NCBI GenBank assembly: GCA_016209705.1
Contig: JACQVR010000065.1
Span: 965 to 64,964, forward strand
DNA from: Planctomycetota bacterium
GTDB lineage: Bacteria > Planctomycetota > MHYJ01 > JACPRB01
DNA: 64,000 bases
Direction of reading: 5' to 3'
Positions 2,864 to 21,847 of the stretch are shown here, piece by piece. Numbering within the stretch: position 1 is the first letter of the stretch; the number at the start of each line of letters is the position of its first letter. Under the pieces are notes generated by a model. It was given only the letters and a program-made list of their open reading frames with translations. It was not told the DNA's origin and made no database searches. The position numbers and the translations under genes are program-made.

Positions 2864-5731
2864 ATGAACGCAAGAAGAATCCGAGCGGTGTGGCCCCTGT
2901 TGGGTGCTGTCCTATTGCTGCCGATGTGCGGCTGCCTGGATGACGGAGACGAGGGCGTTGCGGGAGATCCCGGCGCCGCCGCGCAACCGCCCCCTACCGA
3001 TACGGTGCTCGATCCCTACAAGTCGCTGCCGGGCGTGGTCCTCTCCATCATCGACGTCGCGGGGGCGTCGGGCGCAGACGGGACGTTCCAGGCGGGCGAC
3101 ACGATTCGGGTGAAATTTACCGTCAAGAAGTCCGACGGCACGGCGCTCCCGGTTTCCGAACTGGACTCCACTTCGATTTACGTCTCGGGTCCCACCTTTA
3201 ACTATCAGCGCGTGATTCCCGCCGCCAGCAACTGGCACACGTCGACGGCATCAAACTCGGACGGCTCCTACACCTACACGTTCGCCTCCGCGATTCCTGC
3301 CACGTACGCGGCTCCCTACAACGATACGAACACCTTCGGGGCCAATGACGGCGAGCTCCAGGGCCAGCCCCTTCTGGCCGGCACATACACGATCGGCATG
3401 CAAGCCTACAAGTACTACACGGTCGAAGGGGTGAATTATCGCGACGTGGGCAACGTGACGAAGGATTTCCTTTTCGGCGGGGCGACCACGCTGGAGCCCC
3501 GCGAGGCCGTGAAACTGGAAAACTGCAATCAGTGCCACGTGACCCTTCAAATGCACGGAGGCACCCGCCGGGATACGAAGCTGTGCGTCCTCTGCCACAC
3601 CGCCGGCGCGGAAGATCGAAACGTCGCCTCGGCGGCGGGAGGCACTCCGGACGTGACCATCGAGTTCAAGGTCATGATTCACAAGATCCATAACGGATTG
3701 CATCTGCCTTCCGTGCTCGGAGTGGCCACCAATCCCAACGGCACGCGTGACTACGCCGCGACGCCGAAGCCCTACAAGATCGTCGGTTACAACAACAGCA
3801 TTCATGATTACTCCGGAGTCGGCTTCCCGGTTTGGCCCAACCTGAATGTGGCGATGCCGCGCGACCAGGGGCACGTCCCTTCAACTCCCGAGGCGTCTCT
3901 GGAAGACGAGATCCGCCGCGGCGTGACCGATTGCGCCAAGTGCCACGGAGATCCGGACGGCGATGGGCCGTTGACCGCCCCCGCGCAAGGGGACCTGGCG
4001 TACGCGCAGCCGTCTCGCCGCGCCTGCGGGGCCTGTCATGACGACATCGACTGGTCGCATCCGTACATCTCCAACGGGCAGACGATGCCATCGCAGGCGA
4101 ACGATTCGGCCTGCGTTCTGTGCCACGTGTCCACGACGAACGGCCTTGACACGGTGAATGCCCACCTGCATCCGCTCAAGAACGCCGCGCTCAATCCGGG
4201 CTTGAACGTCGACATGACGGCCGCGACCCCTTCCGTGGGAACATCGCTCGATCCGGGCGAGAAGCTCGCCGTCACCTTCTCCATCAAGGACGATACCGGA
4301 ACGGATGTCCAGCCCAGCGGGATCGGGCTCAACGTCGTCGTAGCGGGGCCGACCACCAACCGGAACTTGCTCCTGTACACGTCCATTCCCACGGACGCCT
4401 TGGGAGCCATCGCGCCCAGCTACACGTTGAATGTGCCGGAGCGCGTGGCCCTGGAGGGCCTCGGACTGGCCACAGGGGGGGTGGATGTCTTCACGACGGC
4501 CCGCGCTCCGCATTGGAACTTCACGGGCGATCTTACGAGCATCTTGGAAGGCACGTTCACCGGAACGGTCACGACCCTCGCGGCGGCGTCCACGGTGTTT
4601 CAGAACTACGTGGACGCGGTCAGTTCCACCGGGTTCGCCAATAACGACTATATCGTGATCGACCGCGGCTTGGGCACGCAAGAATACCTGCGCGTCCGGC
4701 GCGTCGAAGGGAATCGGTTGTGGTTCTCCACCCGGTACGACAGCTCGGTCTCCTATCAACCCTATCTCCGGATGGCGCACGCTTCAGGCGCCGGTGTCGA
4801 GAAAGTAACGGTCGCGACCAAGGTCGAAGGCACCCAGTGGAGTTGCAACCATACGACGGGCGAGGTCACGTTGGTCGCGGGGCAATTCACGGCCGGTAAG
4901 GCGGTGATTAGCAGCTACACCACGGACTTCGTCATGCCTTCCGTCTTCCCTCCGCCGTTGAACGACTCGCCCGATCTGGACGAAACATGGGGCGAATGGG
5001 CGGGGAAGGCGATCACGAGCGGGACGTACACGGTCGGCGTATGGGGTTCGTACACCTGGACGTACAACGCTTTCGACGACGGTGTTGCGAATCACAACAA
5101 CTCGTACCGAACGACATCCCTGCCCTCTAACAAGGACTTCCTGGTCGGTTCGGCAACCACACTGGCCCCGTACTCGCTCATCGATGTGAGCGCCTCGGGC
5201 GGCCGCTGCAACGAATGTCACAACGAGATCCTCTTCCACGGCGGCAGCCGGCGCAACGTGGAGACGTGCCTCCTATGCCACGGGACGGCCGGATCCGAGG
5301 ACTGGCCCATCTACCGCTCCCCCGTTCCGGCCAATGCGACGCCCGGCGTCACGATCAACTTCAGAACGATGCTGCACAAGATCCACATGGGGGAGGAATT
5401 GGCGAATGCCTCGACCTATACCGTGAACGGCTTTAACGGCGGCGGGCATACCTATGAAGAAGTGGTCTTTCCTGCCATGCCAGGGGCGGTCAAGCACTGC
5501 GACAAGTGCCACGGCTCCTCCGCCGCCTGGAAGGCGCCCGCCGACCGCAATCATCCAACCGAGCAATTCTCGCCCGTGCGCGCGTGGAACGCCGCGTGCG
5601 GTTCATGTCACGATTCCAGCGCTGCACAAGCGCACATCGGGCTTCAGACCTTCAGCGGCTCGGAATCGTGCGCCGTCTGCCACGGGCCGGGACGGGAGTT
5701 CAATGTCGAGTTGATGCATAAGAACCGTTAG
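2864..5731 (+). CDS. Large decaheme c-type cytochrome lipoprotein (~955 aa) with internally duplicated pentaheme modules; candidate cell-surface cytochrome
   Basis: ATG 2864 preceded by gggaggaa RBS; signal + lipobox LLLPMCGC; 10 CxxCH (CNQCH, CVLCH, CAKCH, CGACH, CVLCH, CNECH, CLLCH, CDKCH, CGSCH, CAVCH); repeated module CN(Q/E)CH..(M/F)HGG(T/S)RR..C(V/L)LCH(T/G)AG(A/S)ED and MIHKIHNG / MLHKIHMG; ORF-track 5' extension to 2702 lacks RBS/signal. Confidence 0.8.
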   Translation: MNARRIRAVWPLLGAVLLLPMCGCLDDGDEGVAGDPGAAAQPPPTDTVLDPYKSLPGVVLSIIDVAGASGADGTFQAGDTIRVKFTVKKSDGTALPVSELDSTSIYVSGPTFNYQRVIPAASNWHTSTASNSDGSYTYTFASAIPATYAAPYNDTNTFGANDGELQGQPLLAGTYTIGMQAYKYYTVEGVNYRDVGNVTKDFLFGGATTLEPREAVKLENCNQCHVTLQMHGGTRRDTKLCVLCHTAGAEDRNVASAAGGTPDVTIEFKVMIHKIHNGLHLPSVLGVATNPNGTRDYAATPKPYKIVGYNNSIHDYSGVGFPVWPNLNVAMPRDQGHVPSTPEASLEDEIRRGVTDCAKCHGDPDGDGPLTAPAQGDLAYAQPSRRACGACHDDIDWSHPYISNGQTMPSQANDSACVLCHVSTTNGLDTVNAHLHPLKNAALNPGLNVDMTAATPSVGTSLDPGEKLAVTFSIKDDTGTDVQPSGIGLNVVVAGPTTNRNLLLYTSIPTDALGAIAPSYTLNVPERVALEGLGLATGGVDVFTTARAPHWNFTGDLTSILEGTFTGTVTTLAAASTVFQNYVDAVSSTGFANNDYIVIDRGLGTQEYLRVRRVEGNRLWFSTRYDSSVSYQPYLRMAHASGAGVEKVTVATKVEGTQWSCNHTTGEVTLVAGQFTAGKAVISSYTTDFVMPSVFPPPLNDSPDLDETWGEWAGKAITSGTYTVGVWGSYTWTYNAFDDGVANHNNSYRTTSLPSNKDFLVGSATTLAPYSLIDVSASGGRCNECHNEILFHGGSRRNVETCLLCHGTAGSEDWPIYRSPVPANATPGVTINFRTMLHKIHMGEELANASTYTVNGFNGGGHTYEEVVFPAMPGAVKHCDKCHGSSAAWKAPADRNHPTEQFSPVRAWNAACGSCHDSSAAQAHIGLQTFSGSESCAVCHGPGREFNVELMHKNR

Positions 5732-5781
5732 GAGGAAACGTGGCTTGCGAGTGCCGGAAGAGATGGACGCGGCGCGGGAAC

Positions 5782-6585
5782 ATGATCCTCGCTCAGGGAC
5801 TGTTCCTCTTGGCGCTGGCGTCCATCTTCTGGGCGGCGCTGGCGCGGCGCGGGCCGGCGGCCTCGATGAGCGAAACGCCGCCGCAGGACGTGCCGTCGTT
5901 GCCCCGCGGGCCGGAATCAAGCGGCCCCGTCGCGATAGAGCCTCTTTATGAAACACGAGATCCCGCTGCGGACAAAGCGGCGCGCACCCTTCTCCGCGGC
6001 GGGACCGAAAAGGCGTATGAACGCGAGTTTCGTGAAACCGCGCGGCACCGTCCGGATCGTCTCATGTCGGATATCGAAGCAACTCTGGCGGGCGAGCATC
6101 CCGACGCGCAAAAAGTCGCGGCGTTGCGCGCCGCGTACGAAGTCGGGCGGCTCGACCCGTTTCTTCGCGTGCTCGCTTCCGAGGCGGAAAGTCAGGCGCT
6201 GAGATCCTTCGCGTTGCGGTTCCTGGCCGGCAAGTCGCCACGGACGCCCTCGGCGCGCGCGCTCCTGGCCGATTATGTGAGGATGCGCCCGCCGGAGGAG
6301 GAACAACGACGCGATGCGCTGGCCGCCCTCTTGAGATGGGCGCCCGACCGCGAGCTGGCGGGATATTGGGATCTGTTGACCTTTGAGACCGCGCCGGGGG
6401 CGGCGATCGGCGCGGCGGTGGCCCTGCGCAAGAACGGGAACAATCCGACGGCCGCCGCGGCGCTTCAATACCTGGCGACCGCGCATCCTTCCGCCGAGGT
6501 CCGTCATCGAGCCGCAGAGGAACGTTCGGGCCGGTACTGTCCCGAACATGCCCAAGAGGCGGCGGACCCAGAAGGAGGGTATTGA
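5782..6585 (+). CDS. Membrane-anchored HEAT-repeat-like protein (hypothetical)
   Basis: N-terminal TM MILAQGLFLLALASIFWAAL; C-terminal HEAT/PBS-lyase-like repeats (AAIGAAVALRKNGNNPTAAAALQYLATAHPSAEVRHRAAE). Confidence 0.4.
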   Translation: MILAQGLFLLALASIFWAALARRGPAASMSETPPQDVPSLPRGPESSGPVAIEPLYETRDPAADKAARTLLRGGTEKAYEREFRETARHRPDRLMSDIEATLAGEHPDAQKVAALRAAYEVGRLDPFLRVLASEAESQALRSFALRFLAGKSPRTPSARALLADYVRMRPPEEEQRRDALAALLRWAPDRELAGYWDLLTFETAPGAAIGAAVALRKNGNNPTAAAALQYLATAHPSAEVRHRAAEERSGRYCPEHAQEAADPEGGY

Positions 6586-6667: not shown

Positions 6668-6683
6668 TGGCAAGAAGCTTGCA
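6668..6683 (+). promoter_or_regulatory. Putative sigma-54 (-24/-12) promoter TGGCAA-N5-TTGCA upstream of tetraheme cytochrome/ResB/CcsA/ACIII-like operon
   Basis: tggcaagaagcttgca matches TGGCAC-N5-TTGCW with one mismatch; the predicted TSS falls ~2 nt before ATG 6696, which conflicts with the GGAGA RBS at -9. Confidence 0.4.
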
Positions 6684-6695
6684 TGGAGATGAGTC

Positions 6696-7367
6696 ATGAA
6701 AAACAAGATTCCGGGCGGTGGGGCGGTGGCGGCGCTCCTGATCGCGATCGGCGCGGCCATGGCGGCGCCTCAAGGGCAGGATGCTGGGAACCGGTACATC
6801 GGGGTCGACAAGTGCAAGAACTGCCATGAGGCCAAGACCAAGGGAAGCCAGTTCTCGCGCTGGAAGGAGACGAAGCACGCCAAAGCCTTCGAGCTTCTCA
6901 CCGGTGATGAGGCCAAGAAAGTCGCCCAAGCCAAAGGAATCTCGGATCCGCACAAGAGCGAGAAATGCCTGAAATGCCATGTCACGGCGTTCGGCCAGCC
7001 CGCCGAACGGCTCGCCAAGGGATTCGAGCCGACCCACGGCATCCAATGCGAAAGCTGCCACGGGCCGGGCGAGAAGCATTTCAAGGTGCGCCTGGCGGCC
7101 GCGGAGGATGAGGAAGAGGGGTATGTCGAAATCCCTGACGGCGAGATCATCAAGAGCCCTCCTCTCAAAACCTGTTTGGGGTGCCACAACGAGGAGAGCC
7201 CGCAGTTCAAGCCCTTCTGCTTCAAGAAGCGGTTCAGCGAGATCCAGCATTGGGACCCTCGCAAGGAGCGAAGCGAGGCGGAAATCAAGGCCGCGCAATG
7301 CGCCTGTCCGGCGGATGGTTGCACCTGCAAGCAAGGGGAATGCGGTGAACTTCACGAGAAAAAGTGA
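6696..7367 (+). CDS. Tetraheme cytochrome c, secreted, with C-terminal Cys-rich tail
   Basis: Signal peptide MKNKIPGGGAVAALLIAIGAAMAAPQ; CKNCH, CLKCH, CESCH, CLGCH; C-term CACPADGCTCKQGECGELH. Confidence 0.8.
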   Translation: MKNKIPGGGAVAALLIAIGAAMAAPQGQDAGNRYIGVDKCKNCHEAKTKGSQFSRWKETKHAKAFELLTGDEAKKVAQAKGISDPHKSEKCLKCHVTAFGQPAERLAKGFEPTHGIQCESCHGPGEKHFKVRLAAAEDEEEGYVEIPDGEIIKSPPLKTCLGCHNEESPQFKPFCFKKRFSEIQHWDPRKERSEAEIKAAQCACPADGCTCKQGECGELHEKK

Positions 7368-9321
7368 TCACCTGAACGCGCCCGGCACGTTGCACGTCCC
7401 GCGGCTGGGACGTTCGTTGGGGCTCGCCGCGGCGCTTTGGTCGGCGCTGACGGTGATCGGGCACCTGGGCGCCGGCGATCTGTTCCGCCACATGTCGGGA
7501 CAGGCCCTTGCGGTCGGAGCGTTCGGAGGCGCCGGCGTTTTCTTTTGGATGATTCGAAAGGGCCTCTTCCGCTGGTTGACGTCGCCTTCCTTCGCCGTCT
7601 CGGCGTTTGCCTTTCTACTTCTGGCCGCCGCGGTGGGAACCGTGGTGCCCCAAGGGATGCCGGCCGAGCAATTTTCGGGACGCTACGGCGCCTGGTCGGG
7701 CGCGCTGCGGTGGGGTGGGGTGCATGACATTTCCCATTCGGTTCCCTTCCGCGGGTTTCTGGTCCTGCTGGCGATTTCGCTGGCCCTGGTGGCGATCAAG
7801 CGGAAAGCGTGGCGCCTCCCGGAATGGGGATTTCTCCTGTCTCACGCGGGTGTCATCGTCATCCTCACGGGCGGTCTGATCGGGAGCGTCTTCGGAATGA
7901 AAGGGTTCATCGACATTCACGAAGGTCAGACGGTCGAGACCGTGGCGCGGCAAGGGGAAGCGCGGCCGACGAGCGGCGTTCCCCTGGGATTCGGCTTGCG
8001 CCTGGACGATTTCGAGATCGAGAGGTATCCGCAACAATACCGCCTTTACGTGTACGCCTTGGCGGGTGACGACGCTCGTGTCGTGGGCTCGCACGACGTC
8101 CGCGTGGACTCCGAATGGCGCCCGGCCGGAGGGGCGAAGGAACAGGTCCGGGTCGTCGCCGTCTATCCCGACTTCACGCTGCGGACCGAGTTGCGCGAGA
8201 CGCCGGAGGGCGGGCCAGCGCTGGTTCTGCGGCTGGAGGAATGGGATGGCCGCACCTTCCCGGTGACTCTTCTGGCCGGAGTCGAGGGCCGCGAGACGCT
8301 CGCCTTGCGCCGGCCTCCCGCGCGGATTCGCTTCCTGTGGGAGGAGGATCCCGCCGCGCTGGGCGCCAAGCCGGAGGAGCACCTCGTCACGTTCGAGGCG
8401 GACGGCGCGTCTCCTCAAGAGACGCACGTCGAACCGGGCGGAAGCTACGCACTGGGAGAGGCTCGCTATCAGCTTGCGGTACTGTCCTATTTCCCGGACT
8501 TCGCCTATGACTCGGAGCGGCGCGAGGGTTACACGCGCTCGTCCACGCCGGGGAATCCCGCGCTGCGCGTCTCGCTAAGGGACTCGCGGTCGGGTGACGT
8601 TGAAGAGCGCTGGCTGTTCGCGAAGATGCCGGATTATGGGGGAACGCACGGTCGCGGCTCCTCCGGAGTGAAGCTCTCGTATCGGCACGTGCCGGCGCGC
8701 GAACCCATGGAACGGGAAATCGTCGTCGCCGGCCGCGCGCGCCAGGTCGTCGAATATCAACGCGCGGTCGAGACCTCGCGAACCGCGCTGCCGCCTGACG
8801 GCGAGCCGTTGGCCGAGGGATTGGATGTGACGGTCGAGCGCCTCGTGGAACGGGCGGAGGAGCTTCATTTTCCCGCGACGCGGTCGGACGTGTGGCGGCG
8901 CCCTGCGGTGGGACTTGAAATCCGCTCGGCCCGCGGAACGCAGCGAATGCTCTTGAAGGCGGGCGTCTCCGAGGCGATCCGACTTTCCGATGGGAAGACC
9001 GTTCTGGTTCTGGATCGGAAGCCGGACGACGTCAAGGCGTTCCGCAGCCGCGTCACGGTCCTCGACAAGGGAGCCGCGGCGCGCCGGGCGACGCTGTCCG
9101 TCAACCATCCGCTCTCGTACGGCGGCTATCGATTCTATCAGTCGAACTATCGGGCGGAGGATCCCACGTACTCGGGGCTCCTCGTGGTCAAGGATCCCGG
9201 GCTGGGCGTCGTGTATGCGGGATTCGGGATGATCTGTGCCGGAGTGATGTTCATCTTCTACGTGCGTCCGGCGATCCTGCGTGCGCGGATCCTCGCCCGA
9301 AGAAAGGTGCTGGAAGGATGA
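7315..9321 (+). CDS. resB: Cytochrome c biogenesis protein ResB/Ccs1 (System II); start uncertain (ATG 7315, GTG 7342 or ATG 7492)
   Basis: ResB hallmark first TM LTSPSFAVSAFAFLLLAAAVGTVVPQG, large periplasmic domain, C-terminal TM; stop overlaps ccsA start (ATGA). The ORF-track 5' extension to 6979 overlaps the cytochrome gene and is rejected. Confidence 0.75.
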   Translation: MVAPASKGNAVNFTRKSDHLNAPGTLHVPRLGRSLGLAAALWSALTVIGHLGAGDLFRHMSGQALAVGAFGGAGVFFWMIRKGLFRWLTSPSFAVSAFAFLLLAAAVGTVVPQGMPAEQFSGRYGAWSGALRWGGVHDISHSVPFRGFLVLLAISLALVAIKRKAWRLPEWGFLLSHAGVIVILTGGLIGSVFGMKGFIDIHEGQTVETVARQGEARPTSGVPLGFGLRLDDFEIERYPQQYRLYVYALAGDDARVVGSHDVRVDSEWRPAGGAKEQVRVVAVYPDFTLRTELRETPEGGPALVLRLEEWDGRTFPVTLLAGVEGRETLALRRPPARIRFLWEEDPAALGAKPEEHLVTFEADGASPQETHVEPGGSYALGEARYQLAVLSYFPDFAYDSERREGYTRSSTPGNPALRVSLRDSRSGDVEERWLFAKMPDYGGTHGRGSSGVKLSYRHVPAREPMEREIVVAGRARQVVEYQRAVETSRTALPPDGEPLAEGLDVTVERLVERAEELHFPATRSDVWRRPAVGLEIRSARGTQRMLLKAGVSEAIRLSDGKTVLVLDRKPDDVKAFRSRVTVLDKGAAARRATLSVNHPLSYGGYRFYQSNYRAEDPTYSGLLVVKDPGLGVVYAGFGMICAGVMFIFYVRPAILRARILARRKVLEG

Positions 9322-10130
9322 GCGCGTTCTTCGCCGAAAGGCCCCTCGTTCTGGCGATTCTCGTCGCCCACGGGATGGCGTTGCTCCTTTGGACGGCCGG
9401 CGCCGTTTTGAAGAAGAAAGGCCTGCGGGTGGGAGCCGGAGTCGTGTTCGGAGTCGCCTTCCTTCTCAACACGGCGGTGATCGCCCAGCGCTGGATCGAG
9501 GCGGGGCGGGCGCCGTTCAAGACGCTGTACGAAACGCTGCTCTTTTATCCGTGGTGCGTGGCGTTGGTAACGCTGGTTCTCCTCGCCCTTTATCGCCTGG
9601 GCGTCTTGATCCCTTTCGCTTCGGCGGCGTGCGCGGGAGGACTCCTCTACGCCGCGTCGCGGCCGGATGTCGAGATCGTCAATCTTCCGCCGGCGCTTCA
9701 GAGCGGATGGTTCGTGCCTCACGTGGTGACGTACTTCGTGGCGTACGCGGCGCTCTTCGCGTCGTTCGCGCTCTCGCTTCTGGCGCTCGTTCGTCCGGCG
9801 TGGAAATCGGAAGGCGGCGAGGCGGGATTCGAGGAGTACGCCCATCGCGCCGTGATGTTCGGTTTCGCGGCGCTCACCATGGGCCTGGTCATGGGCGCGA
9901 TATGGGGCAAGGAAGCCTGGGGCGATTACTGGTCCTGGGATCCCAAGGAGAACTGGGCGCTGGTGAGCTGGCTGGCGTACCTGATCTATCTCCATCTGCG
10001 CCTGGTGAAAGGTTGGCGCGGGCGTCCCGCGCTCGTGGTCTGTCTCCTGGCCTTTGTCGCGGTCGTCTTCACGTATCTGGGGATGAGCTCGCTTCCCTCT
10101 GCATCGGATAGCCTGCATGTTTACCAGTAG
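9318..10130 (+). CDS. ccsA: Cytochrome c assembly protein CcsA/ResC (System II heme lyase subunit)
   Basis: WWD-domain motif WGDYWSWDPKENWALVSWLAYLIYLH; multiple TM helices; translationally coupled to resB. Confidence 0.85.
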   Translation: MSAFFAERPLVLAILVAHGMALLLWTAGAVLKKKGLRVGAGVVFGVAFLLNTAVIAQRWIEAGRAPFKTLYETLLFYPWCVALVTLVLLALYRLGVLIPFASAACAGGLLYAASRPDVEIVNLPPALQSGWFVPHVVTYFVAYAALFASFALSLLALVRPAWKSEGGEAGFEEYAHRAVMFGFAALTMGLVMGAIWGKEAWGDYWSWDPKENWALVSWLAYLIYLHLRLVKGWRGRPALVVCLLAFVAVVFTYLGMSSLPSASDSLHVYQ

Positions 10131-10632
10131 GAAGACCTTGATCGTCGTCGGAATGGCGGCGCTGACGAGCGCCGCGGTCGTGGCGCAGATGACGGGCCGC
10201 GGCGCGAGCGATGTGACGCAGCCGCTGGCGTTCAATCACAAACGCCACATCGAAGAAGGCATGAGTTGCCTGGACTGCCACAAGGGGGCCGACCAGCGGG
10301 CCGAGGCCGGGTTTCCTCCGATCCGGAGCTGTCTCTTGTGCCACTCGGAAGCCAAGGGAACCCATCCCGACGAACCCAAGATCCGGGAATTCGCGGAGCG
10401 CAAGGAGTCCATCCCATGGATTCGGGTGAACCGCATGCCGGGCCATGTCTATTTCTCCCACGCGGCCCACGTGGCGTACGCCAAGATGGACTGCCGCGAA
10501 TGCCACGGAGAGATGAAGGACCGCACCGAGCCCGTCACCCGGTCTCAGGTGGACCATTTGAACATGAACCGGTGCATGGCCTGTCACGACTCGAAAGGGG
10601 TCAGCACCGATTGCCTGCGGTGTCACAAATGA
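10117..10632 (+). CDS. Pentaheme cytochrome c, membrane-anchored (ActA/QrcA-like)
   Basis: CLDCH, CLLCH, CRECH, CMACH, CLRCH; N-terminal anchor/signal MFTSRKTLIVVGMAALTSAAVVAQ; stop overlaps next start (ATGA at 10629-10632). Confidence 0.8.
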   Translation: MFTSRKTLIVVGMAALTSAAVVAQMTGRGASDVTQPLAFNHKRHIEEGMSCLDCHKGADQRAEAGFPPIRSCLLCHSEAKGTHPDEPKIREFAERKESIPWIRVNRMPGHVYFSHAAHVAYAKMDCRECHGEMKDRTEPVTRSQVDHLNMNRCMACHDSKGVSTDCLRCHK

Positions 10633-13049
10633 ACCAGGAACGCGAGACGAAGTGGGGCCGGCGGGAATTCCTGACCGCGGCGGGCGCCGCCGCGGGAGGG
10701 CTCACGCTGGCGGGTTGTTCCGAGAAGGGAGATCCCTACGCCTTGGAGAAGTCGGGGGTTCCCGGGGAGTCCACGTGGAGCCGCGGCGAGGAGAAGTGGA
10801 TCGCCACCGCCTGCGGCATGTGTGCGGCGGGATGCGGCATTCGCGTGCGGGTGGTCGAAGGCCGGGCGGTGAAGATCGAGGGCCATCCGGATTGTCCGCT
10901 GAACCGCGGCGGCGTCGGACCCAAAGGTCAATCGGGACTACAACTGTTGTACCATCCGGACCGGATCCGCGGGCCCTTGCGTCGCGACGGCGCCAGAGGA
11001 TCGGGAAGCTGGAAGCGGGTTTCGTGGGATGACGCCCTGGGAGAGATCGGACGCGCGCTTCGCGAGCTGCGCTCCCAGGGGGAATCGCGCGGCGTGGTCG
11101 TCCTCGACGGCGAACCGCGGGGGATGATGCCGCAGTTATGGGATCGCTTTCTCGAGGCGTACGGGAGCCCCAACCACATCGATCATCACTCCGCGACGGA
11201 CGGCGGAAAGGTCCTCGCGACGGCGTACATGCACGGCGTGCCCGAACTGCCCGCGTACGACTGGGAAAACACGCAGTATGTCCTCGGATTCGGCGCGAGC
11301 CTGTTCGAATCGTGGTGCCAGTCCATTCATTTCATGCGCGCGGCGGTCCACATGCGCCGCGGCGTCCCGGGCCGGCGGGCCAAATTTGTCCAGGTCTCGC
11401 CCCGCTTCTCGGTGACGGCCGCGCGCGCCGACGAGTGGGTGCCCATCGAGCCGGCCACGTACGGAGCCCTCGCGCTCGGCTTGGCGCACGTCTTGATCAA
11501 GGAAGACCTCTACGACGAAGCGTTCGTCCGCGATCACACGTTCGGATTCGAGCCCTGGAAGGATGAGGAAGGGAAGGCGCATCGAGGGTTTCGAGATCTA
11601 GTTCTGGAGGACTATCCGCCCGATAAAGTATCCCCAATCACCGGCGTTCCCGTCGAGACGATCGTGCGCCTGGCGCAGGAAATGGCCGCGCATCGACCCG
11701 CCATTTCGCTGGCGGACGGTGGCGCGGCGGCCGCCACGAACGGATTGGGAACGGCCATGGCGATCCATGCCCTCAACGCTTTGCTGGGAAACCTGGAGCG
11801 TCCCGGAGGAATGATCGTCCAGCGGGCCGCGCCTCTGGCGCCATGGAAAGCCGTCGAGGCGGATGAAACGGCCCGAAAGAACCGGCAGGCGCCGAGAATC
11901 GACGGGACGGGAGACGGGGCTTGCCCGCTCGGAAGAGGTTTCATCCAGGGTCTTCCCGAAACCGTCCTCTCCGGAAATCCCTATCCCGTCAAAGCGCTGT
12001 TTCTTTATCGGTCCAATCCTGTTTTCTCGAAACCCGACGGCCGCCGCTGGGCGGAAGCGATCCAAAAGATCCCGCTCGTGGTGAGCTTTTCCCCCCTGCC
12101 CGATGAGTCCACGTTTTGGGCCGACTTCATCCTGCCGGAATCCACGTACTTCGAACGGTGGGAGATCGTCGAACCCGTCCCCAGCGTGGGCCATCCGGTG
12201 GTGACGTTTCGCCAGCCCGTCGTCGCCCCTCTGTACGACACGATGGCCGCGGGCGACGCGCTGATCCGTCTGGCGAACGCGGTGGGCTCTCCCGTGGCGG
12301 ACGCCTTCCCCTGGGAAAGCTACCGCAAGGCGCTCGAAGAGCGGATCAAAGGTTTCCTGGGAAAAGAAGGGTCGACGGCCGCGACGAAAATGTCGGCCTT
12401 GATCAAAGGACTTCAAAAGGATGGAGGATGGTGGGCTCCCGGATACTCGTTTGAGAAATGGGAGACGGCGTTTCCTACCCCCTCGGGCAAGTTCGAGTTT
12501 TATTCCCGGGAGATCGCCGGTCGGCTCGCGAAGGCGTTCCCGGATGCGGCCGCGCTGGAAAAGCATCTCGCCGGCGCGGGTGTGGCCACGCGCGGGGACG
12601 ACCTGTGCCTTCCTCATTGGGAGCCTCCGCGCTTTTCCGGCAGCGCCGGCGCCTATCCGTTCGTTCTCGTGGTTTATCGAGGGATCAACTACGCGGAAGG
12701 CGGCGTCCGCCACATCCCGGGGCTCCGTGAACTTCCCGGCTCGGGCCGCCTGACGTGGAAGGAGCGCATCGAATTGAACCCCGAGGATGCGCGCCACCTG
12801 GGCATCGACGACGGCACGCCGGTGCGGGTTGAATCTCCCGCGGGCGTGCGCGTTTTGTACGCTCAAATATTTGCGGGAGTTCGTCCCGGGACCGTTGCGC
12901 TTCCGCTCGGTCACGGACCTTGGCCCCCTGAGCCTACCTTGCAGGTCGCCGGCGGCTACGGCCTTCTGGACAATCTGAGCGATCCCTTGGGAGGCATCCT
13001 GGCGCTCCAGGGAACGCGGGTACGCATCCTCAAGGAGGAAGGGGTATGA
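10629..13049 (+). CDS. Molybdopterin-oxidoreductase (MopB) family catalytic-like subunit with Tat signal and N-terminal 4Fe-4S motif (ActB1/PsrA/QrcB-like)
   Basis: ATG 10629 (ORF-track upstream extension lies inside the cytochrome gene); twin-arginine GRREFLTAAGAAAGGLTLAGCS; CGMCAAGCG...HPDCPLNRG MopB FeS-binding N-terminus; ~807 aa. Confidence 0.8.
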   Translation: MNQERETKWGRREFLTAAGAAAGGLTLAGCSEKGDPYALEKSGVPGESTWSRGEEKWIATACGMCAAGCGIRVRVVEGRAVKIEGHPDCPLNRGGVGPKGQSGLQLLYHPDRIRGPLRRDGARGSGSWKRVSWDDALGEIGRALRELRSQGESRGVVVLDGEPRGMMPQLWDRFLEAYGSPNHIDHHSATDGGKVLATAYMHGVPELPAYDWENTQYVLGFGASLFESWCQSIHFMRAAVHMRRGVPGRRAKFVQVSPRFSVTAARADEWVPIEPATYGALALGLAHVLIKEDLYDEAFVRDHTFGFEPWKDEEGKAHRGFRDLVLEDYPPDKVSPITGVPVETIVRLAQEMAAHRPAISLADGGAAAATNGLGTAMAIHALNALLGNLERPGGMIVQRAAPLAPWKAVEADETARKNRQAPRIDGTGDGACPLGRGFIQGLPETVLSGNPYPVKALFLYRSNPVFSKPDGRRWAEAIQKIPLVVSFSPLPDESTFWADFILPESTYFERWEIVEPVPSVGHPVVTFRQPVVAPLYDTMAAGDALIRLANAVGSPVADAFPWESYRKALEERIKGFLGKEGSTAATKMSALIKGLQKDGGWWAPGYSFEKWETAFPTPSGKFEFYSREIAGRLAKAFPDAAALEKHLAGAGVATRGDDLCLPHWEPPRFSGSAGAYPFVLVVYRGINYAEGGVRHIPGLRELPGSGRLTWKERIELNPEDARHLGIDDGTPVRVESPAGVRVLYAQIFAGVRPGTVALPLGHGPWPPEPTLQVAGGYGLLDNLSDPLGGILALQGTRVRILKEEGV

Positions 13050-13867
13050 CGGAGCGCTCAGCCAACTTTGAAAAACCGTCGCGGCGAGGCGTGCTCGGGG
13101 CGATTCTCGGAGCACTGAGTTCCCCGATCGTCCTTTCCAGGCGGCTCTTCGCCGCGGCGGCTCGCCGGAAAATCAAGTGGGGAATGGTCATCGATCTGGA
13201 CAAGTGCACGGGATGCCGGGGGTGCGCCGCGGCGTGCCGGGCGGAGAACAACATCGCCACGGCCGGGCCCGAACGGGCCGAAGAAGGGCGCGGGATCTAC
13301 TGGATGGACCTGCTCACCGTGGAGGAGGGAGAATACCCCAACCTCCGCTCCCAGTTCATTCCCACGCCGTGCAATCACTGCGAGAACGCGCCGTGCGTGA
13401 AGGTCTGCCCGGTGGGCGCGACTTACATTAATGAGGAAGGAATCGTCGCTCAGATCTGGGCACGCTGCATCGGGTGCCGCTATTGCACGACGGCATGCCC
13501 TTACACGCGCCGGTACTTCAACTGGCAGGCGCCGTCATGGCCGGAGGAAGATCGGCAGCGTCTCAATCCCGACGTGGCCACGCGCCCCAAAGGCGTCGTC
13601 GAAAAATGCACGTTCTGTCACCATCGGATCCGCGCGGCGCGCGAGTCCGCCCGCGCGGAGGGGCGGTTGCTGTCCGATGCCGACGTGCGAAAGCTGCCGG
13701 CGTGCGCGCAATCCTGCCCCGCGGAAGCGATCGTCTTCGGGGATCTGAACGATCCGGAGTCTGAGGTGTCGCGCCTGGCCGCCAGCCCGCGGGCTTTCCG
13801 ATTGCAAGAGGAACTGGGCACGCATCCCAAGGTGGTCTATCTGCGGGAGGCCAAATGGCGGGAATAG
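13046..13867 (+). CDS. 4Fe-4S ferredoxin-type subunit (PsrB/NrfC/ActB2-like), Tat-like N-terminus
   Basis: SRRGVLGAILGA; Cys clusters CTGCRGCAAAC, CNHCENAPCVKVCP, CIGCRYCTTACP, CTFCHH, CAQSCP. Confidence 0.85.
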   Translation: MTERSANFEKPSRRGVLGAILGALSSPIVLSRRLFAAAARRKIKWGMVIDLDKCTGCRGCAAACRAENNIATAGPERAEEGRGIYWMDLLTVEEGEYPNLRSQFIPTPCNHCENAPCVKVCPVGATYINEEGIVAQIWARCIGCRYCTTACPYTRRYFNWQAPSWPEEDRQRLNPDVATRPKGVVEKCTFCHHRIRAARESARAEGRLLSDADVRKLPACAQSCPAEAIVFGDLNDPESEVSRLAASPRAFRLQEELGTHPKVVYLREAKWRE

Positions 13868-13872
13868 GAGCC

Positions 13873-15207
13873 ATGGAAATCGAGGAGCCCAGGTCGCCGA
13901 GGTTCACGTTCGAGGTGCAACCGATCTTCGAGCCGCTGCGGAGAACAGGGGCGGGATTTTATTGGGCGGCCGCGGCTCTGCTGGCCGTGGTGGCCTTTGG
14001 GGTTTACGCCTATGTGCGGCAGTATGTTTACGGCCTGGGCGTGACCGGCATGAACCGGCCCATGTACTGGGGCGTGTACATGGCGAACTTCGTCTTCTTC
14101 ATCGGCATCTCGCACGCGGGTACGCTCATTTCGGCGATCTTGCGGGTATCGGGAGCGGAGTGGAGGCGGCCGGTGACCCGCTGCGCCGAGGTGATCACCG
14201 TATTCGCCCTCATCTTCGGCGCCCTCTCGGTAATCCTGGATTTGGGCCGTCCCGACCGGCTCCTGAACGTGCTGCGGCATGGCCGCCTTCAGTCGCCCAT
14301 CCTGTGGGACGTTTGCTGCATCAGCACCTACCTCACGGGAAGCCTCATCTATCTTTATCTCCCGCTCATCCCGGACATGGCGATCTTGAGGGACCGAAAG
14401 GAAGGGCGAGTGTGGCTCTATCGGTTCCTCGCCATCGGTTACCGCGGGACGGCGGGGCAAAAGAAGCGCCTCGAATTCTGGATCGCCGTCATGGCCATCC
14501 TGATCATCCCGATCGCCGTCTCGGTGCACACGGTCGTCTCCTACATCTTCGCCACGACGCTCCAGCCCGGCTGGCACAGCACGATCTTCGGCCCCTATTT
14601 CGTCGTGGGCGCGATTTTCTCGGGGTTGGCGGCGCTCATGATCGCCATGGCGATCATCCGTCGCGGATTCCGTCTCGAAGGGGTCCTCAAGGACATTCAC
14701 TTCAACAATCTGGGACTGATCCTGCTGGTGATGACCTGTCTCATGATCTACTTCACGTTCAACATCTATCTGGTCGAGATCACCGGCAACGAACCTTTGA
14801 TCATGGCGTCGGTGCTGGCCAAGGTCAACGGACCGTATGCCGTGCCGTTTTGGGGGATGATCGTCGGCGGCATGATCGTCCCGGCCATCATTCTGGCTTT
14901 TCCCAAGGGACGCACCGTGACCGGGTGCGTCATCGCCTCGGTCTTGATTCTCGTGGCGATGTGGGTGGAGCGGTTCCTGATCGTAGTCCCCACGCTGATT
15001 CATCCGCGCCTTCCCTGGACCGCAGGTTCCTACGCCCCCACCTGGGTCGAATGGGCGATCACGGCCGGGTGCCTGGCCGCCTTCGCGTTGCTGTACCTGC
15101 TGTTCACCAAGGTGTTCCCGATCGTCTCGATCTGGGAGGTCCAGGAGGGCATCGATGAAGCCATTCCCAAGGTGCGGGAACGGTTCAAGCACTACATGCC
15201 GGACTGA
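13873..15207 (+). CDS. NrfD/PsrC-family polytopic membrane quinone-interacting subunit (ActC-like)
   Basis: Multiple TM helices; NrfD-family pattern; RBS aggag before ATG 13873 (alternative ATG 13855 overlaps upstream stop). Confidence 0.75.
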   Translation: MEIEEPRSPRFTFEVQPIFEPLRRTGAGFYWAAAALLAVVAFGVYAYVRQYVYGLGVTGMNRPMYWGVYMANFVFFIGISHAGTLISAILRVSGAEWRRPVTRCAEVITVFALIFGALSVILDLGRPDRLLNVLRHGRLQSPILWDVCCISTYLTGSLIYLYLPLIPDMAILRDRKEGRVWLYRFLAIGYRGTAGQKKRLEFWIAVMAILIIPIAVSVHTVVSYIFATTLQPGWHSTIFGPYFVVGAIFSGLAALMIAMAIIRRGFRLEGVLKDIHFNNLGLILLVMTCLMIYFTFNIYLVEITGNEPLIMASVLAKVNGPYAVPFWGMIVGGMIVPAIILAFPKGRTVTGCVIASVLILVAMWVERFLIVVPTLIHPRLPWTAGSYAPTWVEWAITAGCLAAFALLYLLFTKVFPIVSIWEVQEGIDEAIPKVRERFKHYMPD

Positions 15208-15234: not shown

Positions 15235-16785
15235 GTGACGTTGAAGGCGCGAATCACCCTGCTGGTGCTTCTGGCGACCTTGTCGGAAGCGATCCTCCTC
15301 GGCGTCATCGCGTACAACGGAGTCAGCAGCGTCTCTCGCAATTCCTTCGAATTGAGGCGGATCGTGTCGGTGATCGAGGAAACGAGGGCGCTCAATGCGC
15401 TGCTGTCCCATCTTTCGGATCCCGTCGAGCATGTGCTCAACGGCGGCCGCGACGCTCGCGAGCGGTTCCTCGGTTCCATGGACGATCTCCAGCGCAAGGT
15501 CGCGGGTTGCGCGGCCGCCACCTGTCACGGATACGACAAGCAGCCGCCCCGCATGGCGGGCGAGATGCTGCGCAGTCTCCAATCGATTCGGGCCGACGGG
15601 ACGCGCATCCTCTCCGCGTATCAGCCGGGCGATCCTCCGCCGCTGGCGGAGTGGGCCGAAGGAGTCGACCGTCCCGCGCGCCTGATTTCCCGCGCGACCG
15701 AACAGATGGCGGGAACGCTCATGAACCGCGCCCGCGAGGTCGACGCCGCCTCTCGGGAGACCGATCAGGCCTCGATCCTACTGGTGACGTTCGCCACGCT
15801 CTTCTGCATCGCCCTGTCGGTCGCGCTGGCTCGTCCCCTCGCGCGCGGCATGACCCGCCCGCTGGCGGGCTTGGTCGAGCAGACGCATCGGATCGCGGAG
15901 GGCAACTTCGAGATCCGCGCGAAGGAATCCGGACCGCCCGAGATCGCGACGCTGGCCCGCTCCTTCAACGCGATGCTCGACGCCCTCGGTCATTATCGGG
16001 ATGAATTGCTGGCCCATCGCAAGGAGTTGGAACTGACGGTCGAGGAACGCGTGACCGAACTGCGCCGCAAGGATGAAGACTTGAAGCGGGCCGGACGATT
16101 GGCGAGCGTGGGGCTGGCCGCAGGCGAAGTGGCCCACGATCTCAACAACCCTTTGACGAACATCCTGGTCAATTCCGACGTCCTCCTCGAATCGGCGGAC
16201 ACCCCCGGTCGTTCCCGGGGCCTCGTCGAGGACATCCGCCGGGACGCGGTCCGCTGCCGGGAAATCGCGGCCGGCATCCGGACGTTGAGCCGCGAGCCGG
16301 GGATCGAGATGACGTCGTGTGCGATCAAGGACTTGATCGAGGAGGCCATCCGCATGCTCCGGTTCAAATGGGGACCGCGGCGGATCGCCGTGAAGTACGA
16401 CTCGAACAACGGGCCGGCGGCATGTTTGTGCAGTCGTCCAGGGATGCTGCAATTGCTGGTGAACCTCATTGAGAACGCCATCGACGCGAGTCCCGACGAC
16501 GGCCTCGTGGAAATCCGCCTGCGTGCTTCGGAGGCCGCGATCGTCCTGGAGGTGCAGGATTACGGAGCGGGAATCCCGCCGGAGGCACGCAGATCCCTCT
16601 TCCGGCCTTTCTTCACGAGCAAGGCCGGGGGCACGGGGCTCGGGCTGGCGATCAGCCGGCGCATCGCGGTGCAGCATGAGGGATCGATCGAGTTCGAAAC
16701 GCGCACGGCCGCCGAGGATCCTGAGCGTCACGGAACGCTCTTCCGCGTGACGATCCCCTGCGGACGGGCTGCTGAGGTATCGTGA
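15235..16785 (+). CDS. Sensor histidine kinase (two TM/periplasmic sensor, HAMP, HisKA, HATPase_c)
   Basis: GTG start after aaggggg RBS; HAMP ARSFNAMLDALGHYRDEL; H-box EVAHDLNNPLTNI; G-boxes GTGLGLAISRRI. Confidence 0.8.
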   Translation: MTLKARITLLVLLATLSEAILLGVIAYNGVSSVSRNSFELRRIVSVIEETRALNALLSHLSDPVEHVLNGGRDARERFLGSMDDLQRKVAGCAAATCHGYDKQPPRMAGEMLRSLQSIRADGTRILSAYQPGDPPPLAEWAEGVDRPARLISRATEQMAGTLMNRAREVDAASRETDQASILLVTFATLFCIALSVALARPLARGMTRPLAGLVEQTHRIAEGNFEIRAKESGPPEIATLARSFNAMLDALGHYRDELLAHRKELELTVEERVTELRRKDEDLKRAGRLASVGLAAGEVAHDLNNPLTNILVNSDVLLESADTPGRSRGLVEDIRRDAVRCREIAAGIRTLSREPGIEMTSCAIKDLIEEAIRMLRFKWGPRRIAVKYDSNNGPAACLCSRPGMLQLLVNLIENAIDASPDDGLVEIRLRASEAAIVLEVQDYGAGIPPEARRSLFRPFFTSKAGGTGLGLAISRRIAVQHEGSIEFETRTAAEDPERHGTLFRVTIPCGRAAEVS

Positions 16786-16900: not shown

Positions 16901-18334
16901 ATGGAAACGGAAGCGGCGATCCTGATCGTGGATGACGAGGAAGGCACGCGCGCCTCGCTCGCGCGCGCTCTCGATCAGCCGGGGTATCGGGTGCGCGGAG
17001 TGGAGTCCGCCGAAGCGGCGCTGGCCGCTCTGGAGAAAGAATCGTTCGACGTCATCCTCTGCGACATCCGCCTTGGAGGCATGGATGGGTTGGAACTCCA
17101 GAAGCGGATTCGCGCGGATCATCCCGACGTTCCCGTGGTGATGATCACGGCGTACGCCGCCGTCGAAACCGCGGTGCGCGCGCTGAAGCAGGGCGCCTAT
17201 GATTATCTGGCTAAACCTTTTTCCGCGGAAGAGGCGCGCAGCGCCGTCCACCGCGCCCTGGAGAGCCGCCGCCTGCGGCTGGAAAACGACTCGCTCCGCG
17301 AAGTGCTTCGCGGGTTCGCGGGCGAAGTGTGGGTCGGGAATTCCGCGCCGATACGGCGGCTTTATGAGGAGGCGGCCAAAGTGGCGCGCAGCAACGCCAC
17401 CGTCTTCATCAGCGGCGAAAGCGGAACCGGCAAGGAGATCCTGGCGCGATACCTGCACGCGCGCAGTCTTCGGGAGCGAGGGATCTTCGTGGCGCTCAAC
17501 TGCGCGGCCCTTCCGGAGAACCTGGCCGACTCGCAGATGTTCGGCCATGTGCGCGGGGCGTTCACCGGAGCGGTGGCGGATCAGCGCGGCCATCTCGAGC
17601 TGGCTCACGGGGGCACGCTCTTCCTGGATGAGATCGCGGACCTCAAGCTCGACGTCCAAGCCAAGCTGCTGAGGGTGCTGGAGGAACACCACTTTCGGCG
17701 GCTGGGTTCCGAGCGGGAGATCTCCGTGGATGTGCGGGTCCTCGCCGCCGCCCAGCGGAGTCCCGAACAGTTGGTCAAGGAGGGGAAGCTGCGGGAGGAC
17801 CTTTACTATCGGCTCGGGGCGATCCATCTCGAGGTCCCGCCGCTGCGCGAACGGCCGGGCGACATCGCGGATCTGGCGCTGCACTTCCTCGCGCGCTTCT
17901 CGCAGGAGCTCAAGAAGCCCGTCGAAGGATTGGAGCCGGAAGCGCTGAGTTTGCTCGAGAAGTATCCCTGGCCGGGGAACGTGCGGGAGCTCAAGAACGT
18001 GATGGAACGGGCGGCGCTCTTCGTCCAGGCGGGGAGCCGCGTCGGGATCGCGGATTTTCCGGAAAAGATCCGCCGGACTCCGGGCACGGCGCTCTTCGTG
18101 GTGGAGGCTCCTCAGCCGCTCCCGTTGCGGGAATTGTCCCGGCGCTACATCCGCCACGTGTTGGATTTGTGCGACGGCAACCAGGCGAAGGCCGCGCGCC
18201 TCCTGGAGATTTCCCCTTCCACGCTCTGGAGACATTTTTCAAAGACCGAGGCGGCCGCCTTGAAAGATGCCAAGGAGGCTACGCCCGGCTCGCGGGACAA
18301 GGTGCGGACGCCGCATCGTCCGGTGGGTCCATGA
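16901..18334 (+). CDS. Sigma-54-dependent response regulator (NtrC family: receiver + AAA+ + HTH)
   Basis: ILIVDDEEGTRASLARAL...CDIRLGGMDG receiver; [15 protein letters not shown] Walker A; GAFTGA motif; ESELFGH-like; C-terminal HTH. Confidence 0.85.
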   Translation: METEAAILIVDDEEGTRASLARALDQPGYRVRGVESAEAALAALEKESFDVILCDIRLGGMDGLELQKRIRADHPDVPVVMITAYAAVETAVRALKQGAYDYLAKPFSAEEARSAVHRALESRRLRLENDSLREVLRGFAGEVWVGNSAPIRRLYEEAAKVARSNATVFISGESGTGKEILARYLHARSLRERGIFVALNCAALPENLADSQMFGHVRGAFTGAVADQRGHLELAHGGTLFLDEIADLKLDVQAKLLRVLEEHHFRRLGSEREISVDVRVLAAAQRSPEQLVKEGKLREDLYYRLGAIHLEVPPLRERPGDIADLALHFLARFSQELKKPVEGLEPEALSLLEKYPWPGNVRELKNVMERAALFVQAGSRVGIADFPEKIRRTPGTALFVVEAPQPLPLRELSRRYIRHVLDLCDGNQAKAARLLEISPSTLWRHFSKTEAAALKDAKEATPGSRDKVRTPHRPVGP

Positions 18335-18341: not shown

Positions 18342-18383
18342 GAAATAAACTTCCCCGCGGCTTGCCGCGGGGAAGTTTATTTC
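18342..18383 (+). terminator. Perfect 19-bp stem hairpin (gaaataaacttccccgcgg ctt g ccgcggggaagtttatttc) after regulator gene
   Basis: Perfect palindrome read directly; no long T tract, so a terminator or a regulatory hairpin. Confidence 0.5.
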
Positions 18384-21804: not shown

Positions 21805-21847
21805 CTATCGGGAATAGAAGATGAAGAAACAAGAAAGGGGGCGTGCC

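Follow-up and report, generated by a model that had tools for sequence, protein, structure and literature searches.

A sigma-54-type operon combining a System II cytochrome c maturation pair with an ACIII/Qrc-like quinone module in a Planctomycetota bacterium

Alternative complex III (ACIII; ActABCDEF) and the Qrc complex of sulfate-reducing Desulfobacterota are the described systems closest to the one considered here, and both QrcB and the N-terminal domain of ActB are reported to contain no cofactor (PMC13059093, PMC6303296). ACIII-like clusters in an MBNT15 genome, where a tetraheme protein replaces the monoheme ActE, were proposed to work as quinol oxidases for iron reduction (PMC9386147). 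In metagenome-assembled genomes (MAGs) of Planctomycetota and KSB1, NrfD-containing clusters have been described, one of them, in the Planctomycetota or KSB1 MAG OFTM248, downstream of a porin-cytochrome complex; the flanking genes named in the figure legend include sigma-54-interaction regions and a kinase of the NtrC family (PMC10732223). Here we describe an operon that starts at position 6668 of a stretch of 64,000 nucleotides from a Planctomycetota bacterium (the window), in which a four-gene quinone module of the ACIII/Qrc kind stands next to ResB and CcsA, a System II pair for the maturation of cytochromes c.

The operon and its surroundings

It is rather probable that this operon is the center of an extracellular-electron-transfer island, which wires the quinone pool to the exterior of the cell. 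The locus looks like such an island under sigma-54 control because genes for a conduit lie upstream of the operon, and a 10-heme cytochrome gene and a second nrfD gene, with sigma-54-like elements, lie downstream of it. The description rests on gene content, motif statistics, synteny, the loss of cofactor ligands and the conservation of residues. The features of the operon are as follows.

6668-6683, + strand: sigma-54 (-24/-12) element TGGCAAGAAGCTTGCA; 11 of the 12 specified consensus positions matched
6696-7367, + strand: c554-like tetraheme cytochrome; PF13435 5.5e-17; 4 CXXCH; signal peptide; Cys-rich C-terminal tail
7345 (GTG) or 7390 (TTG) to 9321, + strand: ResB/CcsB, System II heme handling; PF05140 3.5e-37
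9318-10130, + strand: CcsA/ResC, System II heme lyase subunit; PF01578 2.3e-39
10117-10632, + strand: pentaheme cytochrome, membrane-anchored, ActA/QrcA-like; 5 CXXCH; N-terminal transmembrane segment
10629-13049, + strand: MopB-like lipoprotein exported by the twin-arginine (Tat) route; GRREFLT twin-arginine motif; LAGC lipobox
13046-13867, + strand: four-cluster iron-sulfur (FeS) subunit, QrcC/ActB2/NrfC-like; 16 Cys in four ferredoxin-type groups; RR motif
13855-15207, + strand: NrfD, ActC-type quinone-interacting membrane subunit; PF03916 1.1e-36
15235-16785, + strand: sensor histidine kinase; HAMP, HisKA and HATPase_c domains; 2 transmembrane segments
16901-18334, + strand: NtrC-type sigma-54-dependent response regulator; Response_reg, Sigma54_activat (1.6e-64) and HTH_8
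18342-18383, + strand: perfect 20-nt inverted repeat, probable operon terminator; directly 3' of the regulator gene

The listing of open reading frames (ORFs) and the Pfam and NCBIfam scans recover, on the plus strand and at the same positions, the seven genes from c554 to nrfD that a preliminary description of the locus had given. The ATGA overlaps that it mentioned are present at three junctions (resB/ccsA, pentaheme/mopB and mopB/FeS), and further overlaps of 14 nt and 13 nt are found at ccsA/pentaheme and FeS/nrfD, respectively. The operon does not end at 15207, where it had been closed, but continues through the histidine kinase and the sigma-54 activator up to the inverted repeat at 18342-18383. 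The scans for sigma-70 promoters and terminators between 5600 and 18700 returned counts at the level of chance, and this hairpin was found separately. The G+C content across the locus is approximately 62-66%, and the regulator has an ortholog of 72% identity in L007.

Related loci are labeled L001 to L088 here, and a scan of a genome collection returned relatives at 70% identity or less; L001 and L010 lie on the same contig, and the stored sequence of L009 and L011 begins at the 13-heme gene. The pattern TGGCA-N6-TTGCW is matched four times in the 64-kb window, against 0.06 times expected from shuffled sequences, and all four sites are located directly upstream of ORFs on the same strand; a looser sigma-54 scan adds the site at 21789. 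A sigma-54-like motif is kept upstream of c554 in L001, L007, L009, L011 and L086, and this link survives changes of gene order, since c554 is the first gene in L007 and is placed between resB and ccsA in L001, L009 and L011. L086 is a different kind of locus and still has the motif before c554. Pairs of kinase and activator genes adjoin the module in L003, L004, L007, L029, L036, L063, L068, L072, L073 and L085, which belong to many, distant lineages. Given the non-random number of motifs, their conservation upstream of c554, and the presence of a kinase and an activator both in the operon and beside the module elsewhere, the prediction that the promoter at 6668-6683 is real is well supported. 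The sigma-54 operon proposed in the preliminary description has therefore gained from the motif statistics, from the orthologous loci and from the NtrC-type activator and kinase encoded within it.

The periplasmic domain of the kinase contains, at residues ~85-100, the sequence CAAATCHGY, which has a CxxxxCH pattern. This pattern is kept in the orthologs of the kinase in L007 (CSATTCHGY) and L008 (CAATSCHGY), and may correspond to a covalently bound heme c that acts as a redox sensor. A shared upstream site for the activator was also considered; the 7- to 9-mers common to three of the sigma-54 upstream regions are scattered and near chance expectation, and no site is claimed.

The genes and elements that flank the operon are the following.

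317-1693, + strand: outer-membrane beta-barrel, hypothetical protein HY716_08370, 457 aa; signal peptide; ends ...AAYSF
1702-2718, + strand: 13-heme c-type cytochrome, lipoprotein-like signal; 13 CXXCH; Cytochrome_C7 and MtrC/F domain Pfam matches
2702-5731, + strand: 10-heme large cytochrome, MtrC/MtrF-like domains; PF22113 1e-41; 10 CXXCH
5740-6585, + strand: conserved ORF of 281 aa, N-terminal hydrophobic segment; no Pfam match
18525-18540, + strand: second sigma-54-like element TGGCAAACGTTTTGCT; upstream of the 10-heme cytochrome gene 18564-20714
21789-21804, + strand: third sigma-54-like element CGGCACGCCCGTTGCA; 11 of 12 positions matched
21821-22132, + strand: hydrophobic ORF, 103 aa
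22328-23920, + strand: second NrfD paralog, 530 aa; NrfD Pfam 1.6e-18; ActC 7e-20

The four upstream genes are tightly spaced and on the same strand as the operon; neither the porin-cytochrome genes among them nor the additional sigma-54 units downstream had been noticed in the preliminary description. No Pfam match was obtained for the barrel and only 25 homologs were found; its AlphaFold2 model is all-beta, with ~24 strands and a pLDDT of 81.7, and the Foldseek matches of this model in the PDB are outer-membrane barrels (porins and usher barrels), making it the probable porin of a porin-cytochrome conduit. The barrel gene is syntenic in L001 and L005, and the 13-heme gene in L001, L005, L009 and L011; the 13-heme cytochrome is probably a periplasmic or in-barrel component of the conduit. 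The 10-heme cytochrome at 2702-5731, whose true start is probably internal, near MNARRI..., has homologs in L088 (57% identity) and L001 (38%), and is a candidate for the extracellular component. At the position of the 281-aa ORF there is a homolog of 31% identity in L011 and a 283-aa gene in L088. The ten-gene string from the barrel to nrfD is complete in L001 and present from the 13-heme gene onward in L009 and L011, while partial strings are found in L005 (barrel, multiheme genes and module) and in L007 (c554 to regulator).

Downstream of the operon, the cytochrome encoded at 18564-20714 has 10 hemes and an MtrC/F domain, is lipoprotein-like, and is a probable member of the same regulon. 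The second NrfD is 34% identical to that of the module, from which it is 7 kb away, and is ActC-like and not ActF-like. NrfD proteins of this second type are found inside the module, in place of the ActC-type subunit, in L001 (13262-14836) and L021, and for this reason the two membrane subunits may be interchangeable.

Two other sites on the minus strand match the sigma-54 consensus at 12 of 12 positions. The one at 30605-30620 immediately precedes an ORF of 148 aa (30175-30621), with a gene for a dynamin-family GTPase (30721-32073) on its upstream side. The one at 40875-40890 is upstream of antiporter-like genes. A second sigma-54 activator gene is found at 40919-42271, and downstream of this gene and of the 40875-40890 site, on the minus strand of the 32000-42300 region, where the G+C content is higher (68-72%), there are Mrp/Nuo-type antiporter-like genes (PF00361) and a gene for a universal stress protein.

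The ResB/CcsA pair

System II pairs that are linked to a cytochrome gene cluster are known, as is the case of NrfI/CcsA1 in Wolinella succinogenes. In the window, ResB and CcsA look like a canonical System II pair, and both look functional. The WWD motif of CcsA (WGKEAWGDYWSWDPKE) is flanked by His, and the TIGR03144 model gives 185.2 bits, just under its cut-off of 187.6; ResB has four hydrophobic segments, a VNHP motif and a His in SHAGVIV. The sizes of the two proteins, 270 aa for CcsA and 658 aa for ResB, fit the canonical pair of anammox planctomycetes and not the modified one (PMC4222556).

The preliminary description had suggested that this pair is paralogous and dedicated to the heme-dense cytochromes of the operon, which is unproven. 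There is close to an even chance that it is the general housekeeping System II pair of the genome, with a position that reflects inherited planctomycete synteny. The canonical motif and sizes of the proteins favor this possibility, as does the result of tblastn with all the locus proteins, which found no second resB/ccsA pair within the 64-kb window. Homologs of CcsA form a continuous series of more than 100 sequences with 53-70% identity, mostly from Planctomycetes. Of three other Planctomycetota loci that were examined, two contain the c554-ResB-CcsA triad, L086 (5227-8849) and L088 (1451-10120), where it is directly followed by multiheme or Rieske/cytochrome b genes. In the third, L087 (6457-8819), ResB-CcsA is found without c554, and Rieske/cytochrome b genes are a few kb upstream. 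In none of these three cytochrome-rich loci does an ACIII-like module adjoin ResB-CcsA. L088 also shares genes similar to mhc1009 and orf281. Given that L086 and L088 repeat the triad in cytochrome-rich settings, it looks like a recurring cassette of the cytochrome-rich respiratory loci of Planctomycetota.

The promoter argues against this alternative, since the whole of cytochrome c maturation would become conditional if a housekeeping pair were controlled by a sigma-54 promoter that needs an activator. Moreover, L086 has, on its minus strand (453-2210), a divergent second CcsA-like gene (585 aa, 27% identity) and anammox planctomycetes have two pairs (PMC4222556), indicating that paralogy is common in the phylum, and pairs linked to cytochrome clusters are known in Geobacter (PMC2700814) and Tenderiales (bioRxiv 10.1101/2022.05.06.490989). 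An atypical heme motif that would call for a specialized lyase was looked for and discarded as a reason for the pair, since the cytochromes of the locus all have CXXCH and the sole CxxxxCH is that of the kinase.

The quinone module and the direction of electron flow

Among solved structures, the best match of the NrfD subunit is ActC (6f0k_C, 3.1e-67, 231 bits). When the ActC residues described for Rhodothermus marinus (PMC5928083) are transferred through the alignment, NrfD is found to keep 14 out of 14 residues of the cytoplasmic half-channel, together with Asp169 and Ser245. The FeS subunit, with a CRYC motif among its 16 Cys, is closest to the C-terminus of ActB (2.4e-57). The pentaheme protein, which has a hydrophobic segment at residues 7-25, matches ActA chains with values that range from 1.6e-21 (8k9e_A) to 4e-16. 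The NCBIfam equivalogs NF041781-NF041784 were used as the Qrc reference models, and the cytochrome and the FeS subunit find their best NCBIfam models in QrcA and QrcC, respectively. Nonetheless, all scores are below the cut-offs, with 103.5 bits versus 180 for QrcA (NF041781) on the pentaheme protein, 274.8 versus 440 for QrcB on MopB, 288.5 versus 400 for QrcC on the FeS subunit, and 45.8 versus 570 for QrcD on NrfD. As a positive control, L081 and L083 pass the Qrc cut-offs for the subunits tested (QrcB 522 and 492), and L081 also passes those of QrcD (641) and QrcA (229). No ActD, monoheme ActE or ActF is encoded after nrfD, where the next gene is that of the histidine kinase.

Since the Qrc models remain under their cut-offs, the NrfD is of a different type from that of true Qrc, and ActD, ActE and ActF are missing, the predicted complex is to be placed in the ACIII/Qrc family in the broad sense, as a member of neither named system. 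The resemblance to ACIII and Qrc put forward in the preliminary description is thus retained through the matches to ActA, to the C-terminus of ActB and to ActC, and membership in either system is not. Taken as a whole, that description largely stands, though at reduced strength.

The same type of module recurs in MAGs across many phyla, such as Rokubacteria, Bacteroidota, Ignavibacteria, Acidobacteria and Syntrophia, where it is often followed by a tetraheme c554-like gene, which suggests a conserved partnership between the module and a tetraheme cytochrome. The tetraheme protein of the window matches c554 of Nitrosomonas europaea (1bvb) with 4.5e-13 and is a probable periplasmic carrier.

Two further features of the tetraheme proteins were observed. 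In distant phyla, the tetraheme protein is encoded after the module instead of before it and is larger (386-481 aa; L063 14425-15870, L044 5304-6464, L060 14460-15629), and in L052, L065 and L070 the gene in this position matches c554. The C-terminus of the c554-like protein of the window (7270-7367) is a Cys-rich tail, CACPADGCTCKQGECGELH, that is kept in all the orthologs compared (L006, L007, L001, L009 and L011) with a very variable length, from short (L001, L009 and L011) to strongly expanded (L007).

In the mechanism that we favor, the NtrC-type regulator whose gene closes the operon, with its partner kinase and the possible heme c sensor of the latter, would activate the promoter at 6668-6683 and thereby the genes for c554, ResB, CcsA, the pentaheme cytochrome, the pseudo-MopB, the FeS subunit, NrfD, the kinase and the regulator itself. 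The four middle genes would give rise to a periplasm-facing, quinone-reactive complex of the ACIII/Qrc family, where the ActC-type NrfD would exchange electrons with menaquinone/menaquinol near the outer face, with protons passing via the fully conserved cytoplasmic half-channel, and the MopB-like lipoprotein, having lost its molybdenum (Mo) ligand, would be a non-catalytic scaffold. In the favored direction, menaquinol would be oxidized at the ActC-type subunit, and electrons would proceed through the four FeS clusters to the membrane-anchored pentaheme cytochrome and from this to c554, which would cross the periplasm and deliver them to the 13-heme cytochrome inside the barrel and then to the 10-heme cytochrome at the surface. 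The flow would most likely be outward and serve to respire insoluble Fe(III)/Mn(IV) or humics, and the co-transcribed ResB/CcsA would raise the capacity for heme attachment upon induction of this heme-rich regulon. Each step of this electron chain is drawn from homology and synteny, and we likewise infer the assembly of the complex, its electron partners, the direction of flow and its regulation by this kinase and this regulator.

Several observations weigh against this mechanism. The source genome is a MAG. In the close relatives L003, L004 and L012, the four-gene module is found without a conduit or ResB/CcsA nearby, which means that the link to extracellular electron transfer is lineage-specific. 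The sigma-54 motif is separated from the ATG at 6696 by only 12 nt (13 nt in L007), whereas the spacing to c554 is an ordinary 37-39 nt in L001, L009 and L011; at 12 nt, the predicted start site would leave almost no leader in the mRNA. This predicted start site is preceded by a GGAGA Shine-Dalgarno-like sequence (window 6685-6698), placed between the ATG and the -12 element and, therefore, translation would differ between transcripts that read through from upstream and those initiated by sigma-54, with the same geometry in L007. In NrfD, two residues of the quinol pocket of ActC are replaced, His139 by Asp and Asp253 by Ile, and only three of the six residues of the periplasmic half-channel are kept. 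The direction of electron flow is not fixed by the sequence; the conserved cytoplasmic half-channel fits both ways. Finally, the sequence of MopB is nearer to those of true molybdoenzymes than to ActB, and the residue beside its lost ligand is a conserved Asp/Glu; with this residue kept and three Cys of its FS0 motif invariant, a residual cofactor is possible.

The same parts with inward flow constitute a rather unlikely but serious rival. Electrons would here enter the conduit from Fe(II), from a partner cell or from a mineral that behaves as a cathode, and the module would be Qrc-like, reducing menaquinone at the outer face with cytoplasmic protons and conserving energy. Nitrosomonas c554 passes electrons toward the quinone pool, which counts for this direction, as do the complete cytoplasmic half-channel of NrfD and the fact that the Qrc models are the top NCBIfam models for the cytochrome and the FeS subunit. 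In addition, Qrc is a cytochrome c:menaquinone oxidoreductase with protons taken from the cytoplasmic side (PMC6303296, PMC13059093), and ACIII has been proposed as the point of entry into the quinone pool in electron-uptake organisms (bioRxiv 10.1101/2022.05.06.490989). The NrfD of the window is, however, far nearer to the quinol-oxidizing ActC than to QrcD, as seen from the 231 and 45.8 bits reported above. Large MtrC/F-like surface cytochromes are, moreover, typical of metal reducers, and this counts against inward flow.

It is quite improbable that MopB, the FeS subunit and NrfD form a functional Mo or W enzyme of the Psr/Phs/Arr/Ttr type, which would reduce a soluble substrate and have the cytochromes as accessory electron input. 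The three MopB Pfam domains are all detected and the best PDB matches of MopB are ArrA (2.4e-85) and PsrA (9e-68), with values of 1e-13 to 1e-6 for ActB. The best NCBIfam models are PhsA (326.6 bits) and ArrA (299.4 bits), followed by TtrA (119.4 bits); these scores are, however, far under the respective cut-offs of 694, 1600 and 1750. The Cys that is the Mo ligand of ArrA and PsrA aligns with a Thr in MopB. Among 33 homologs this column is occupied by T, S, N, G, D, A or L, and in most members of the clade by Ser or Thr, which together with the conserved Asp/Glu that follows would suit a metal site. Against this, the column still varies among orthologs with at least 55% identity, with Gly, Ala, Leu and Asn appearing at 55-65%. 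The fourth Cys of the FS0 motif is also lost, being replaced by Gly (GPKGQ) in all 11 loci of the clade; the other three, C62, C65 and C69, do not vary.

The genomic context points the same way. Across the genome loci, none of the 12 MopBs with an HSSIC-type motif has a pentaheme gene upstream, while 46 of the 57 MopBs that do have this gene upstream lack a Cys in the ligand region. Furthermore, the NrfD is of the 10-helix ActC type, which is tied to non-catalytic partners (PMC6303296). An absolute rule, by which an upstream pentaheme gene excludes a Cys near the ligand, was discarded in favor of a strong tendency, given the 11 exceptions in 57, mainly from Rokubacteria and Methylomirabilota. 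The exceptional MopBs have a conserved Cys two residues before the ligand column, in [VA]RC[LM]... (VRCL...), as observed in L058 (second copy), L063, L067, L068, L072, L073 and L077 of Rokubacteria/Methylomirabilota and in L085 of Myxococcales, and these proteins may still coordinate a metal.

The lipobox after the Tat signal and the FeS motif at the N-terminus of MopB were both part of the preliminary description; the LAGC lipobox follows a GRREFLT twin-arginine motif as stated, and the FeS motif is present with only three of its four usual Cys. That description had also held that a grouping of MopB with true molybdoenzymes, with intact ligands, would speak against the module. Half of this is what was found, since the nearest proteins are indeed ArrA, PsrA and PhsA and the ligands are not intact. 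The loss of the Mo ligand and of one FS0 Cys, together with the reports of QrcB and ActB without cofactor, suggests that MopB functionally resembles these scaffolds. With its Mo ligand lost and its FS0 site eroded in part, MopB is, as far as its sequence tells, an evolutionary intermediate that stands between an active molybdoenzyme and QrcB or ActB, which have no cofactor, and it would be useful for studying how catalytic subunits turn into scaffolds.

The retention of FS0 Cys was also considered as evidence for a cluster and set aside, given that QrcB of L081 (8907-11372) and of L083 (9088-11496) keep all four and retention alone proves nothing. QrcB having been described as cofactor-less (PMC13059093), either a cluster is present in some QrcBs, or the motif has outlived it.

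A canonical ACIII in which ActB is split, supplying electrons to a terminal oxidase of aerobic respiration or denitrification, is highly improbable: the best structural-database matches are ActA-, ActB2- and ActC-like and canonical clusters are known in Planctomycetota MAGs (PMC10732223), but ActD, monoheme ActE and ActF do not follow nrfD, the match of the second NrfD, at a distance of 7 kb, is to ActC instead of ActF, no oxidase genes are found among the window ORFs scanned, and MopB is only weakly ActB-like (1e-13).

It is possible, though doubtful, that the clade is a distinct and unnamed subfamily of NrfD complexes, a hybrid of ACIII and Qrc acting in Planctomycetota as the gate at the inner membrane for extracellular electron transfer. 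It would have a split pseudo-MopB with three Cys, possibly with a [3Fe-4S] FS0 cluster, an ActC-type subunit exchangeable with the second NrfD, both of them preceded here by a separate sigma-54 element, a c554 partner dedicated to the complex, and a sigma-54 regulon switched by a heme c redox sensor kinase.

Comparison with known systems

With ACIII (6F0K, 6BTM, 6LOD, 8K9E), the module shares the anchored pentaheme cytochrome, the four-cluster FeS protein and an NrfD of the 10-helix type, with the 14 cytoplasmic half-channel residues and Asp169 of the quinol site in common, as well as a periplasm-facing MopB-like subunit without Mo ligand and with a Tat signal and a lipobox. It differs from ACIII in that the counterpart of ActB is split into two genes, with the MopB part nearer to ArrA/PsrA and keeping three FS0 Cys. 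The quinol-pocket residues His139 and Asp253 are changed, ActD, ActE and ActF are absent, no oxidase genes are found among the window ORFs scanned, and the genomic partners are those of a multiheme conduit.

With Qrc it shares the order of the genes (cytochrome c, MopB-like, FeS and NrfD), a MopB-like lipoprotein that lacks the Mo ligand and is predicted to be non-catalytic, and the Tyr between two Cys (CRYC) in the FeS subunit, as described for the quinone site of QrcC (PMC13059093). In contrast, the four scores given above are all under the Qrc cut-offs, the MopBs of the true Qrc loci L081 and L083 are only 34% identical to that of the window, the NrfD is ActC-type and not QrcD-type, and the host is a planctomycete. 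No genes for hydrogenase, formate dehydrogenase or sulfate reduction were seen among the window ORFs scanned.

The ACIII-like clusters of MAGs (MBNT15, PMC9386147; Planctomycetota/KSB1, PMC10732223) are similar in having an ActABC-like module linked to multiheme cytochromes, a likeness that was drawn from their published descriptions. These reports do not include ResB/CcsA within the operon, the loss of an FS0 Cys, the conservation of a promoter or a second NrfD.

The cluster-linked System II pairs of Geobacter (ResB/ResC, PMC2700814) and Tenderiales (uet-ccsAB, bioRxiv 10.1101/2022.05.06.490989) resemble that of the window in that ResB/CcsA is co-transcribed with multiheme genes, which suggests by analogy a local capacity for maturation. 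Unlike them, the pair described here has canonical motifs, and the cytochromes of the locus have only CXXCH, with one atypical CxxxxCH in the kinase.

The string of genes for a barrel, a compact multiheme cytochrome and a large cytochrome with MtrC/F domains is shared with the porin-cytochrome conduits Pcc of Geobacter and MtrCAB of Shewanella, from which the predicted conduit of the window differs in heme counts (13 and 10), in gene order and in a barrel without a detectable sequence family.

What is new in this locus is the System II pair within the operon, the conserved promoter, the partly eroded FS0 site, the mosaic of an ActC-type and a QrcB-like subunit, and the second NrfD. Given that each part has precedents, and that similar ACIII-like clusters appear in the papers on MAGs, the gain is incremental and not conceptual. 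Planctomycetota are abundant in anoxic sediments and groundwater, and the respiration of their non-anammox members is poorly known. For these bacteria, the island offers a concrete and testable route for the respiration of minerals and humics or for electron uptake, and would extend the short list of gates at the inner membrane, which comprises CymA of Shewanella and ImcH, CbcL and CbcBA of Geobacter.

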